Shown here piece after piece: positions 18,340 through 21,939 of a DNA stretch of 64,000 nt. Source of the stretch: Candidatus Berkelbacteria bacterium (GTDB lineage Bacteria; Patescibacteriota; UBA1384; CAILIB01); assembly GCA_043751595.1 (NCBI GenBank), contig JAYUZR010000042.1, positions 270-64,269 of the forward strand, given 5' to 3'. Below the pieces are notes generated by a model. That model did not search any database and was not told the origin of the DNA. It saw only the letters and a program-made list of their open reading frames with translations. The position numbers and the translations under genes were made by a program. Position 1 is the stretch's first letter. Each line of letters opens with the position of its first letter.

Positions 18340-21300
18340 CTATTCTACTCGGTCGACGAAGGGATCGAGCAGCTTATCAAACGCAATCTGAATTACTAAA
18401 AGTTTTCTTAGTAATTCACTTAAGCGGATAGCCTTATCCTGGTCGAGTACAGCATAATCTTCCTTACTCAATAACTGCCTGACTGGCGGCACATGAAGCA
18501 AGGTAAACTTTTTACATTCTTCATAAAAAGCACTAGTGCTATCCGCAAGACTAATAAGCAATTCACGAAGAGTGCCCTGCTCTTCGGCATCTAACAGAGT
18601 ATCAATGAAGGCAAATAAGCCCCCTGAAAAACTCTCGGTTTCCCACGGATAATTAGGTAACTCATCAATCATATCCCCTATCATAGAAGCCTTCATTGAA
18701 CGAAAGTTCGAAAGGTTATCAAGAAACGCCTTTTCCGCGGCAAGAAAAGACTCAGAAACACTGCCCTCTCCAGCTTGCTCAGAATCAAGGTCAGGCAACC
18801 TGCTCGCAGCGCGCTTTACCCAACCGGACTGATGCAAGGAAGTAAAGACAGGACTCGTTTCTCCAGGATAAAATGCTTCGCCGGCTTCACCACTCGGCCT
18901 GAGACAAATAAGATTTTCACGATTGGAGACCTCACCACCTTGAACAGTACGAACATTTAGATAGAGGATTCCAGCAGCAGACCTCTCATTAAAGCTAAGT
19001 AGTCGTTGCACACCATGTACATCAACAGCAATTATCTCGTCGCCCGGCATTAGGCTACCAAGATCAATCTTTTCCAGGCTAAATCCTTGTTCCGTAAGCT
19101 GAGCCTCGGAGAGGGTTTCGGAATCTACTAGTCCTTCAGGAGCACCCTCCGACTCATCTTTATACACAAATATTTGGGCAATCGCCCTTCCAGCTCCACC
19201 AATACTTAAGCCAAAAGGCAGTCCCTCGACCACTTTTGCAAAAGTATCGGCCTTCACCTGGGATGCAGTAGCGATGACTAGCTCGCCGGACAACGCATCG
19301 ATATATCGATAATGAATCTCGTAATCTTTATCTTTTTCAGGGCGATCAATATTCATTGTGACATCTCCTCCGTCTTGGAAGACCACTACCACGCGATCGC
19401 CAGGACTTAGGCTACTGAGGGTAACTTCTTTTTTATTTTCATAGGTAGCAAGTTCTTCATCGCTGTGGATTCGAAGAGATTTTTTTGTCCTTTGCTCATC
19501 AAGGGGAGCTTCTTCGGCCTTACTCCGCCTTACCCACACATTAGCTTCGAGCGAATTAAAGAGGAAATCTGTTGTTGCAGTATCTATCTCTAGATCACCG
19601 CCGTTAGGTGACTCAATAATACGTACATGTCCAAGCAACGCACCAGTGAAGATATCCTCAATGCTATAGACCGCCAATGTATAACCAACTAGTCCGGATC
19701 TAGACTCTTCAACAACTAGAAGGCGCTGCTCACCAGTTAGATCGGTGGAAATGAGCCTATCTCCAGGCTTTAGTGTAGAAAGGTCAAATGTAACCTCAAG
19801 GGTGAACCCCATTTCTTGAAAATCAGAATCGGGGAGCCTCTCAGACTCTATAGGCGGCAAATTTTCTAGCTTTAATTGGTCGGATTTCTGCTTCAGCTCC
19901 AGCTCTTCAATCTCAAGATTAATAATTACCGCTTCGTCAGTATTCTTTTTGAGAAGAGGGCTAGCTGAGCGGTCTTCGACCGAGGTTTTTGTTTTTGCAG
20001 TATTAAACGATTGGTATACAACCTCACCAGAGAGACTTTCATACCTCCCACCATCACCTGTGCGATACCCGGAAGAGAAACCTGTATCGGCATTTACTAT
20101 GGAGTTGTTAGCCCCCAGCAAGACAGGTCCATCGTCTTTCTTCGTGTGACCGTGAATAATTCGGGAGACTGACTTTCTCCCTTTTTTCTGCAATTGGCTA
20201 TTAAGCACTTTAAGGGTTTCATCCGCCTCCCCATCGCTAAAGTCACCAAAATCAGATCGGCGTGTCCAAAGAGGTGAAAGAGTCATGTTCTGGCCGTTCA
20301 CCTTTATGGAAGCCAACTCATCAAGGGTTAACGCAAGCTGCCTAAAATCTCCAGTACTAACCGCAGCTTCGCGCATTTCCTCAAGGTGATCCAGTAAATC
20401 TAATCCCTGAAGGCCCTTGTACTCTGGTAAATATATTTTACGGCTAGCATTGATATCAACAGGAAAACCAGCGTGAACCATAAATTGATCATCAATTACA
20501 TGGTAAATATGCGCATTCTTTACGAGCCACTTTGCCCAACTCCTTATTTCTTCGCTGGCTAGAACCGCCTTTGCCATAGCCTCAAGATCATCAGTAACTA
20601 TTCCGAAACTTCTTGCAAACTCTGCACCTCCCTGCCTTAACCAACTAAACATAGTGGCCATGTCTCCAGTAAGAGATACAAGGAGTAGCTCTTCGTGATT
20701 CCCCAAGCACAGCTTTGCCCCCTTATTTTCCACCCAATCTTTTACAATCTCTAAGACACCCTTACTATTTGGGCCTCGATCAATCAGATCCCCCACAAAT
20801 CCAATCTGAACACCTTCCGGCACTTTCTTTAGCGTTTCCTTAAGCTTATCAGCATCCCCATGAATATCGGGATAAATCCAAACCGGCCGAGCGGGTTCTT
20901 CTAAACTCCTTCTCTTTGCCTCAATAAGCTCAGCCCTTTCCGCAATAGTTTTTTCTAAGCCCTGACGAGTCGACTCAGCTGTTACCAAAGACGGAGGCAT
21001 CTCAGCCAAAACTGGCTCAGGAGCTGGATCTGTACCGGTACCCACCCTTGGCCAGCCCTGTAAAACAGCTTCTGAATCCTCAACCCCCAAACCAGACTGC
21101 CCACCCTTACCTTCATCGAACTCGGTATCATCATCCGCCTCCAATACCTCCTCCTCAGCCTCAGCGGAACCTGGAACATTAAATATAATGTAAGCAATCT
21201 TTACCTCGTCTTTCAGGCCTGCTGCTTGAGCAATCGGATTTCTTGGGGAAAGCGTCTCTCCAAGCATAAAGGGACGAGAGGGGTCGTATTCAGACGCTGA

Positions 21301-21939
21301 AGCAAGCTGATTAAGCTTAACTGGCGTCTTGATACGGTACATCCAACCAGCCCCAAGTGCACCATGCCTTGCATCATTCTCATCTTTCGGAAGAATTGGC
21401 ACGGTAAACTCTCCCCGAACAGGCTTACCTTCCGAGTCGGGCTTTATGTATCCCATGGTGAGCATGCCGCCTTCTTCATGGTCACGCAGATCAAATCCAT
21501 TGGAATCTCTGTGAGATTCATCTTTTTTATATTCCAAATAGTATTGGTCATCATCCGGATCGCCCAATCCGCGCTTGGAAGTATCTAGCTCGCGGAACAT
21601 CTTTACCACTTTTCCCAAGGAACCCAGCGTATTACCGGGTAGTAGCGATACGTCAGAAACCCCTACCAAGTCTTCTTCATTGGTAGACTGATTAATCGTC
21701 TTTAGGCGATACCCAGAAATAGACTCGGCCACTACCTCAAGATAGTAAGCCGTATTCTTACCCGAAGCATCCTTACAAACCACACTAATCCCTTCCTCCG
21801 GGAAGTCATCGAAAAAAAATCCGGCTAACTGCTCAAAATCGGGAGGCGGTAGCTTAGATTCTTCAAAATCAAGCACCTCGGGGTCTTCATAACTCCCCGG
21901 TTCAATCCTTTTCTTATTCCAGAAAAACTCGCGCCGCAT
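18340..21939 (-). CDS. giant cytoplasmic protein (1199 aa) with a central PPP-family (lambda phosphatase/PrpA/ApaH-like) metallophosphatase domain and repeated PGD beta modules
   Basis: PPP signature motifs occur in order between residues 357 and 598: DIHGD (motif I), GDLIDRGPNS (GDxxDRG), GNHE and IIHGHT. These map to roughly 20140..20886. There is no signal peptide or TM helix. The N-terminal 340 aa is acidic. At least four copies of a roughly 60-aa module resembling LxPGDrliavDxxGxQRLLvvEesrsG occur at residues about 50-115, 712-775, 836-925 and 946-1015. Confidence 0.7.
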   Translation of the reverse strand: MRREFFWNKKRIEPGSYEDPEVLDFEESKLPPPDFEQLAGFFFDDFPEEGISVVCKDASGKNTAYYLEVVAESISGYRLKTINQSTNEEDLVGVSDVSLLPGNTLGSLGKVVKMFRELDTSKRGLGDPDDDQYYLEYKKDESHRDSNGFDLRDHEEGGMLTMGYIKPDSEGKPVRGEFTVPILPKDENDARHGALGAGWMYRIKTPVKLNQLASASEYDPSRPFMLGETLSPRNPIAQAAGLKDEVKIAYIIFNVPGSAEAEEEVLEADDDTEFDEGKGGQSGLGVEDSEAVLQGWPRVGTGTDPAPEPVLAEMPPSLVTAESTRQGLEKTIAERAELIEAKRRSLEEPARPVWIYPDIHGDADKLKETLKKVPEGVQIGFVGDLIDRGPNSKGVLEIVKDWVENKGAKLCLGNHEELLLVSLTGDMATMFSWLRQGGAEFARSFGIVTDDLEAMAKAVLASEEIRSWAKWLVKNAHIYHVIDDQFMVHAGFPVDINASRKIYLPEYKGLQGLDLLDHLEEMREAAVSTGDFRQLALTLDELASIKVNGQNMTLSPLWTRRSDFGDFSDGEADETLKVLNSQLQKKGRKSVSRIIHGHTKKDDGPVLLGANNSIVNADTGFSSGYRTGDGGRYESLSGEVVYQSFNTAKTKTSVEDRSASPLLKKNTDEAVIINLEIEELELKQKSDQLKLENLPPIESERLPDSDFQEMGFTLEVTFDLSTLKPGDRLISTDLTGEQRLLVVEESRSGLVGYTLAVYSIEDIFTGALLGHVRIIESPNGGDLEIDTATTDFLFNSLEANVWVRRSKAEEAPLDEQRTKKSLRIHSDEELATYENKKEVTLSSLSPGDRVVVVFQDGGDVTMNIDRPEKDKDYEIHYRYIDALSGELVIATASQVKADTFAKVVEGLPFGLSIGGAGRAIAQIFVYKDESEGAPEGLVDSETLSEAQLTEQGFSLEKIDLGSLMPGDEIIAVDVHGVQRLLSFNERSAAGILYLNVRTVQGGEVSNRENLICLRPSGEAGEAFYPGETSPVFTSLHQSGWVKRAASRLPDLDSEQAGEGSVSESFLAAEKAFLDNLSNFRSMKASMIGDMIDELPNYPWETESFSGGLFAFIDTLLDAEEQGTLRELLISLADSTSAFYEECKKFTLLHVPPVRQLLSKEDYAVLDQDKAIRLSELLRKLLVIQIAFDKLLDPFVDRVE

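Follow-up and report, generated by a model that had tools for sequence, protein, structure and literature searches.

A 1199-residue protein of a Candidatus Berkelbacteria bacterium with an apparently active PPP-family phosphatase unit between flanks that resemble no known family

The gene described here lies in a 64,000-nucleotide stretch of DNA from Candidatus Berkelbacteria bacterium (contig JAYUZR010000042.1, positions 270 to 64,269), referred to below as the window. It occupies positions 18340..21939 of the minus strand and encodes a protein of 1199 residues. We consider it moderately probable that this protein is a modular phosphomonoesterase of the PPP family that depends on metal ions and most likely acts on phosphoproteins, and whose orphan flanking modules would serve in targeting. 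Bacterial PPP phosphatases are usually viewed as small stand-alone enzymes of broad specificity. The present protein and its closest relatives represent one PPP sub-clade whose members are found again and again inside very long proteins, of which some are exported and others are encoded beside genes of a conjugation-type type IV secretion system (T4SS). The embedding suggests substrate targeting, and an action between cells is possible.

The gene and the parts of its catalytic unit are as follows (window coordinates; residue numbers of the protein).

18340..21939, minus strand: complete open reading frame (ORF) with ATG start, 1199 residues, soluble; uninterrupted, translated from the window.
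20905..20964, minus strand: N-flanking helix, residues 326–345, ending in the sub-clade motif (E)LE-(K)PAP; AlphaFold2 predicted local distance difference test score (pLDDT) ~97, conserved in the sub-clade alignment.
20020..20892, minus strand: PPP-family metallophosphatase domain, residues 350–640, with helical inserts between GNHE and HAG and between HAG and GHT.
19864..19938, minus strand: C-flanking helix, residues 668–692, IINLEIEELELKQKSDQLKLE; pLDDT 90–97.

The reading frame and the positions of the PPP motifs agree with the description given in an earlier note made from the letters of this DNA. The same full-length protein, without any difference, was found on five contigs that stem from several independent assemblies, each time with the same neighbours, and a variant from a further assembly (P0001) has Met in place of Leu at residue 412 as the sole difference in 1199 residues. 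Because it is reproducibly assembled on independent contigs, the ORF is taken to be a real gene. Codon 412 (20704..20706) reads TTG (Leu) in the window and lies directly before the catalytic GNHE; the exchange looks like a single-nucleotide polymorphism within the population. The maximal mean Kyte-Doolittle hydropathy of any 19-residue segment is at most 1.28 and the N-terminus is not signal-like, in line with the earlier view of a soluble protein without signal peptide or transmembrane helix. Lacking both, the protein would most likely act in the cytoplasm.

The catalytic unit, residues ~325–700, carries the full binuclear-metal active site of the PPP family. The motifs are DIHGD at position 358, GDLIDRG at 383, GNHE at 413, VHAG at 488 and IIHGHT at 593, so that the set reported previously is intact and VHAG can be added to it. 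The catalytic residues in the domain are D358, H360, D384, R388, N414, H415, H489, R560, H597 and D617. The first nine of these align with D20, H22, D49, R53, N75, H76, H139, R162 and H186 of lambda phosphatase, and the C-terminal ligand and phosphate-binding residues are found in VHAG (H489), LWTRR (R560) and HGHT (H597). All of the ten except R560 are invariant in the protein and its eight closest relatives; degenerate metal-ligand positions in homologues, which the earlier note had regarded as a possible objection, were thus not encountered. Two of the motifs show deviations. The first reads PDIHG and not GDIHG, with Asp and His invariant across 77 aligned sequences. In bacterial-type PPPs the motif (I/L/V)D(S/T)G replaces the eukaryotic SAPNY (PMC535813); here it reads N-A-D-T-G (615–619), with Ala at the first position and D617 as the aspartate, and SAPNY does not occur anywhere in the protein.

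The fold prediction agrees with the motifs and corresponds to the alpha/beta sandwich of metallophosphatases. AlphaFold2 modelling of residues 325–700 from the 77-sequence alignment gave a pLDDT of 85.3 and a predicted template-modelling score (pTM) of 0.85. Both bracketing helices reached pLDDT > 90 and show conservation within the sub-clade. Behind the domain, the relatives P0002–P0005 and P0007 have a helix corresponding to the second one, and the match to P0003 extends to residue 701. Pfam Metallophos matches residues 352–431 (E 2.6e-8). When a sub-clade profile was compared with the Protein Data Bank (PDB), the best match was the cold-active Tyr phosphatase from Shewanella (E 1.7e-18, split into two stretches and covering the insert), and Foldseek with the modelled unit also placed the Shewanella enzyme first. 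The unit sits among the "bacterial-like" PPPs (the Shewanella Tyr phosphatase, ApaH, RLPH2, lambda phosphatase, Pnkp). Membership in the clade of the Shewanella enzyme is not established, because its lead over ApaH, RLPH2 and lambda phosphatase is small.

None of the curated NCBIfam family cut-offs was reached by the phosphatase unit. The top match by E-value was the ApaH model PRK00166 (E 2.7e-13), with 49.8 bits (cut-off 176); a second ApaH model, TIGR00668, scored 22.6 bits (cut-off 222.85). The bacterial Pnkp model TIGR04075 came next at 39.8 bits, with 64 residues matched (cut-off 750). PrpE gave 36.9 bits (cut-off 340), and the PrpA and PrpB equivalog models gave 40.8 and 24.1 bits (cut-offs 326 and 332). 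The domain is a genuine "bacterial-like" PPP, apparently active, and falls within none of the curated families.

The order of these matches, together with the best single-sequence match in the PDB, the Pnkp phosphatase domain 4j6o (E 6e-5), raises the question of a nucleotide or nucleic-acid substrate. The protein might then be an ApaH/PrpE-like hydrolase of Ap4A (or NpnN caps), or an RNA-healing enzyme like Pnkp, active on 2',3'-cyclic or 3'-phosphate ends, with flanks that bind nucleic acid. We regard this as quite improbable. The scores lie far below the respective cut-offs, and the protein has the canonical GDLIDRG, whereas diadenosine tetraphosphatases show characteristic modifications of GDxxDRG (PMC535813). 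The kinase and ligase domains of Pnkp are absent, and a protein with a net charge of −84 should be a poor binder of nucleic acid.

A sugar-phosphate substrate was considered as well. Pfam FBPase_2, the family of class III (Firmicute) fructose bisphosphatase (FBPase), matches residues 453–529 at 31.8 bits, above its 27-bit gathering score. The same family is matched by all five relatives tested (P0002–P0005 and P0007), with up to 58 bits. Foldseek returned the B. subtilis F16PC model 9a7j_A second and with the best query coverage (TMq 0.57). In addition, a gene of the IMPase/FBPase family lies 32 nucleotides upstream, so that the protein could be imagined as the partner of a co-transcribed enzyme. 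The FBPase_2 match covers only 77 of 639 model positions (373–449), however, and these fall in a helical insert common across the clan, while the best stretches of the relatives vary along the model. 9a7j is an integrative model and not a crystal structure, the remaining architecture is unlike that of a 640-residue FBPase, and the protein has no orthologue in which the pairing with an IMPase could recur. An FBPase-like function is therefore very improbable. The reading as a phosphoprotein phosphatase is the one we prefer, and the substrate would then be a phosphoprotein, dephosphorylated at Ser/Thr or at Tyr.

An exhaustive phmmer search against 1.84 billion representative proteins returned no full-length homologue; every match was confined to residues ~290–700. 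A common, already characterised multi-domain family, named in the earlier note as a refuting finding, is thereby contradicted. Among the top 150 matches, 133 were shorter than 450 residues and 17 longer, which agrees with the earlier statement that bacterial PPPs normally stand alone. Most of the closest database matches are proteins of 200–270 residues labelled 'serine/threonine protein phosphatase 1' in their source. A word-indexed search proved too insensitive here: with the full protein as query it retrieved nothing but that protein, and with the sub-clade profile it yielded generic stand-alone PPPs only and missed the profile's own members. Among annotated plasmids and phages, tblastn gave no sub-clade member and no record covering at least 80% of the phosphatase unit, and BFVD contained ordinary phage Ser/Thr phosphatases only. 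A scan of JGI metagenomes with a four-sequence alignment retrieved generic PPPs matching ~90 N-terminal residues and no sub-clade member. A literature search found no paper on the PPP sub-clade or on its association with T4SS. Chemistry and fold are of a known kind, and PPPs with several domains do occur, as a minority; the present architecture is a singleton.

The regions outside the phosphatase unit were analysed separately. They are the following.

21190..21939, minus strand: N-terminal region, residues 1–250, orphan, beta-rich in a low-confidence model; putative degenerate module copy at ~25–135.
20968..21189, minus strand: acidic linker rich in Pro, Gly and Glu, residues 251–324, probably disordered, as indicated by its composition and by a pLDDT of 23–38 without secondary structure (single-sequence model).
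19510..19842, minus strand: repeat module A, residues 700–810, core LKPGDRLISTDLTGEQRLLVVEE; homologous to module C.
19135..19467, minus strand: possible third module B, residues 825–935, core LSPGDRVVVVFQDGGDV; PGD core only.
18790..19122, minus strand: repeat module C, residues 940–1050, core LMPGDEIIAVDVHGVQRLLSF; homologous to module A.
18343..18789, minus strand: C-terminal region, residues 1051–1199, orphan, helical at low confidence (pLDDT 37–53, single-sequence model).

The earlier note had counted at least four copies of a module of roughly 60 residues. The duplication is real, but two copies are secure and the unit measures ~105 residues: modules A and C share 29% identity over 109 residues (pairwise E 1.5e-11). 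A profile built from A and C matches module B at its 18-residue PGD core only (residues 838–855), with 3.7 bits, compared with 2.2 and 4.4 bits for the 99% and 99.9% levels of shuffled sequences; pairwise BLAST of module B gave E 0.001–0.002 over 16–17 residues. The proposed N-terminal copy is unsupported, as the A/C profile finds none and pairwise BLAST to module A reaches only E 0.008. A PDZ fold or an SH3/KOW-like barrel was considered as the meaning of the PGD motif and is not asserted.

Full-length AlphaFold2 modelling from the single sequence (pLDDT ~35) was uninformative for the flanks; it suggested a similar strand-strand-strand-helix pattern for each copy at low confidence. The helical nature claimed for the C-terminal ~160 residues is seen in this model at low confidence (pLDDT ~40–50) and is not confirmed. 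Acidity had been seen as a trait of the N-terminal 340 residues, and these are indeed acidic (20% Asp plus Glu, net −32), but the same is true of the entire protein (18%, net −84), so that the region is not special in this respect. Five flank segments gave no Pfam match at E ≤ 10, and thus no anti-sigma, signalling, kinase or ligase domain, which bears out the impression that the flanks are unrecognised. The repeat-module profile found no homologue elsewhere at E ≤ 1, and the flanks showed no significant similarity to the 150 best database matches or to genes in the relatives' loci, including their giant neighbours. Outside the phosphatase unit, ~820 residues resemble nothing known by these measures. 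A duplicated module of ~105 residues without relatives among billions of sequences means that a solved structure would probably define a new domain family.

The closest phosphatase units show 24–33% identity in the sub-clade alignment. They lie at varying positions in proteins of 612–2985 residues, and the long relatives are otherwise unrelated to the protein outside this unit. Since the matches are limited to residues ~290–700 and the unit occurs at differing positions in unrelated proteins, it appears to be a cassette placed into otherwise unrelated long proteins. One branch of the sub-clade (P0002, P0003, P0004, P0005 and P0042) has no signal peptides, while members of another (P0006, P0007 and P0025) carry them at the N-terminus; the gene for P0006 lies among housekeeping genes. 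The genes for P0002, P0003 and P0005 immediately precede PrgI, TraC-like and VirB4-type genes, a set that corresponds to a monoderm-type T4SS or conjugation module (compare PMC12102498). The loci of these three (L002, L003 and L088), and also L084 and L087, contain clusters of giant unannotated ORFs, some exceeding 2500 residues, directly upstream of the PrgI, TraC-like and VirB4-type genes. In L088 Peptidase_C39_2 genes are found downstream, and in L002 an SLH-domain gene upstream. Taken together, the loci look like a recurrent, undescribed T4SS-linked gene neighbourhood.

This neighbourhood leads to a different view of the protein, namely that of a translocated or secretion-associated effector. 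Delivered out of the cell, perhaps through a T4SS of monoderm type whose genes lie elsewhere in the genome, it would dephosphorylate proteins of a partner or host, in the manner of WipA and WipB of Legionella, and the orphan modules would be targeting or translocation determinants. The position of three of the five closest signal-peptide-less relatives beside T4SS genes is consistent with this, as are the signal peptides of the other branch, the DUF5663 neighbour common to P0004 and P0002, and the two giant unannotated ORFs that precede the gene for P0042. Of nine sub-clade members, three gave weak matches to the NCBIfam model of the Dot/Icm effector Wip (NF043030). The strong acidity and the orphan status of the protein also fit the general profile of effectors, and the gene's G+C content at third codon positions (GC3, 0.411) is 1.8 standard deviations below the window mean of 0.51. 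This deviation is modest, however, and the protein itself does not match the Wip model at E ≤ 0.001. Its gene is not adjacent to any secretion gene but is surrounded by housekeeping genes (IMPase, glycosyltransferase, FAD oxidase, DEAD helicase), and among the window's ORFs of at least 200 residues there is no T4SS or other secretion gene. Nor do its flanks share anything with the T4SS-linked relatives or their neighbours. We therefore regard an effector function as fairly unlikely.

A bolder version combines both ideas. The helix-bracketed PPP would be a mobile cassette, inserted by uncultivated and probably monoderm bacteria into giant proteins that are secreted or associated with a T4SS, and the present protein would be an effector not seen before that docks onto phosphoproteins of a partner cell by means of its new beta-rich PGD modules. 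Although distinctly unlikely in our estimate, this would, if true, extend host-directed dephosphorylation of the WipA kind to interactions between bacteria or with epibionts.

The immediate surroundings of the gene contain the following features.

21972..22745, minus strand: gene of the inositol monophosphatase (IMPase) family, 257 residues, upstream of the phosphatase gene with a gap of 32 nucleotides; Pfam Inositol_P E 3.8e-50.
18291..18318, minus strand: hairpin resembling an intrinsic terminator, U-AAAACGCCCAG-AUUU-CUGGGCGUUUU-G, between an A-tract and a U-tract, 22 nucleotides past the stop codon of the phosphatase gene.
17350..18036, plus strand: sigma factor gene of the extracytoplasmic function (ECF) type, convergent with the phosphatase gene.

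The gene had been described as monocistronic. This is probably not so, as the IMPase-family gene lies immediately upstream on the same strand; given the short spacing, the shared strand and a gap in which no terminator-like site was found, the two are probably co-transcribed. The strong terminator reported beside the gene was recovered: a 76-nucleotide stretch with the hairpin and its U-tract folds with a free energy of −31.9 kcal/mol (z −4.35), and none of 200 shuffled sequences was as stable. With tracts on either side, the hairpin could serve both convergent genes, acting in two directions. A 71-residue ORF with GTG start (18125..18340, minus strand), called by public pipelines and overlapping the stop codon of the phosphatase gene, was rejected as a partner gene. 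As it extends across the terminator hairpin and matches no family, it is probably spurious.

The convergent sigma gene was correctly described before as lacking a neighbouring anti-sigma gene, and the phosphatase protein had been proposed to control this sigma factor, either as a regulator of the anti-sigma kind or as a scaffold in phospho-signalling. The two genes adjoin, and no recognisable anti-sigma gene stands beside the sigma gene that could otherwise fill the role; no anti-sigma-like ORF is present in the ~300-nucleotide gap either. Yet the protein has neither an anti-sigma domain nor a transmembrane segment, the genes are convergent and not co-directional, with ~300 nucleotides and the terminator between them, an arrangement from which no functional link follows, and there is no orthologous gene pair in which co-occurrence could be seen. 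Where partner-switching by a phosphatase is known, the enzyme is of PP2C and not of PPP type. No Ser/Thr/Tyr kinase gene, Hanks-type included, is present among the window's ORFs of at least 200 residues. Nothing was found that connects the protein with the sigma factor, and a regulatory role of this kind is extremely improbable. Past region 4, the sigma factor continues into a C-terminal tail rich in Lys and Arg, KKEAPEVVKKKVKRGGVKQKR.

Returning to the modular phosphatase, we envisage the following. The gene would be transcribed together with the upstream IMPase-family gene, and transcription would stop at the hairpin past the stop codon. The protein would act in the cytoplasm, where the helix-bracketed metallo-phosphatase unit would function as a cassette within the long chain. 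The non-catalytic parts, namely the acidic N-terminal region, the two to three beta-rich PGD modules and the helical C-terminal region, would tether the phosphatase or direct it to its substrate or a partner, as the additional domains of WipA and WipB do. This role of the flanks is suggested by analogy only, because their folds are not predictable (pLDDT ~35). Further points speak against the proposal. No kinase gene and no obvious substrate gene is found near the phosphatase gene, and the co-transcription is deduced from spacing alone. Several of the close relatives are exported or encoded beside T4SS genes, which is at odds with a purely cytoplasmic role of the sub-clade.

The other genes of the window are those of an ordinary chromosome and include CTP synthase, iPGM, a DEAD helicase, two-component systems, transporters and a heliorhodopsin. 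The heliorhodopsin ORF (320 residues, 9470..10432, minus strand) matches the full Pfam Heliorhodopsin model (E 1.4e-88). Most reports of heliorhodopsins concern monoderm lineages, which would be in keeping with the monoderm-type features seen here. Neither tRNA genes nor Rfam families at gathering score were found in the 64 kb. Four HATPase_c-type (histidine-kinase-like) proteins and two response regulators are encoded. One of the histidine kinases (810 residues, with N-terminal seven-transmembrane and PAS domains; 38796..41228, minus strand) adjoins an Mrr-type restriction endonuclease gene (37580..38326, minus strand). A GH18 (chitinase-like) gene with a GC3 of 0.70, compared with the window mean of 0.51, adjoins an rve-type integrase/transposase gene (30058..31080 and 31233..32087, both plus strand) and may be a recent horizontal acquisition. 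The DEAD helicase, FAD oxidase, IMPase and ABC-F ATPase fall into 90%-identity clusters of one to two members among 15 billion sequences, and the best match of the CTP synthase among species representatives of the Genome Taxonomy Database (GTDB) has 54% identity (a Berkelbacteria metagenome-assembled genome), all others lying at ~50%, so that the lineage is very sparsely sampled.

Among known systems, a close counterpart of the catalytic unit is the Shewanella cold-active Tyr phosphatase (PPI/CAPTPase; PDB 1v73, 2z72, 2zbm), the prototype of the 'Shelphs'. It has the same PPP fold and set of metal ligands. Shelphs carry inserts between GNHE and H(A/G)G (PMC535813), and the present unit does so as well. 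The Shewanella enzyme, however, is a stand-alone protein of ~340 residues with 23% identity, to which the present protein adds helices, the two flanking helices and its ~820 orphan residues. With lambda Ser/Thr phosphatase and E. coli PrpA and PrpB, all catalytic residues can be aligned and W-x3-NGG after GNHE is held in common, whereas ~100 additional residues in the helical inserts and the embedding in 1199 residues set the protein apart.

ApaH and PrpE share with it a helical, cap-like insert after GNHE, and an ApaH model heads the NCBIfam list by E-value; the canonical GDLIDRG, the multi-domain organisation and the low scores distinguish it from both. Class III FBPase (B. subtilis Fbp) belongs to the same clan and resembles the protein in the helical insert and in the Foldseek coverage, but 12% of the FBPase_2 model is covered, the overall architecture differs and no evidence of the FBPase substrate site was seen. 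Bacterial Pnkp unites kinase, phosphatase and ligase in one protein, whereas the flanks here contain neither of the two partner domains. Anti-sigma factors have a recognisable domain, usually a transmembrane segment, and are co-transcribed with their sigma factor, none of which applies.

The Legionella effectors WipA and WipB (PDB 5n6x, 5nny) offer a parallel for the proposed use of the flanks. Both have the PPP fold and bear non-catalytic extensions, in WipA a helical hairpin and in WipB a domain at the C-terminus, which are believed to direct the enzyme to its target (PMC5454105). Their link to a T4SS is echoed in the loci of the protein's nearest relatives and in the three weak Wip matches. 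The protein itself differs from them in having no Wip match and no adjacent T4SS genes, in coming from a different, probably monoderm, lineage, and in carrying unrelated accessory modules.

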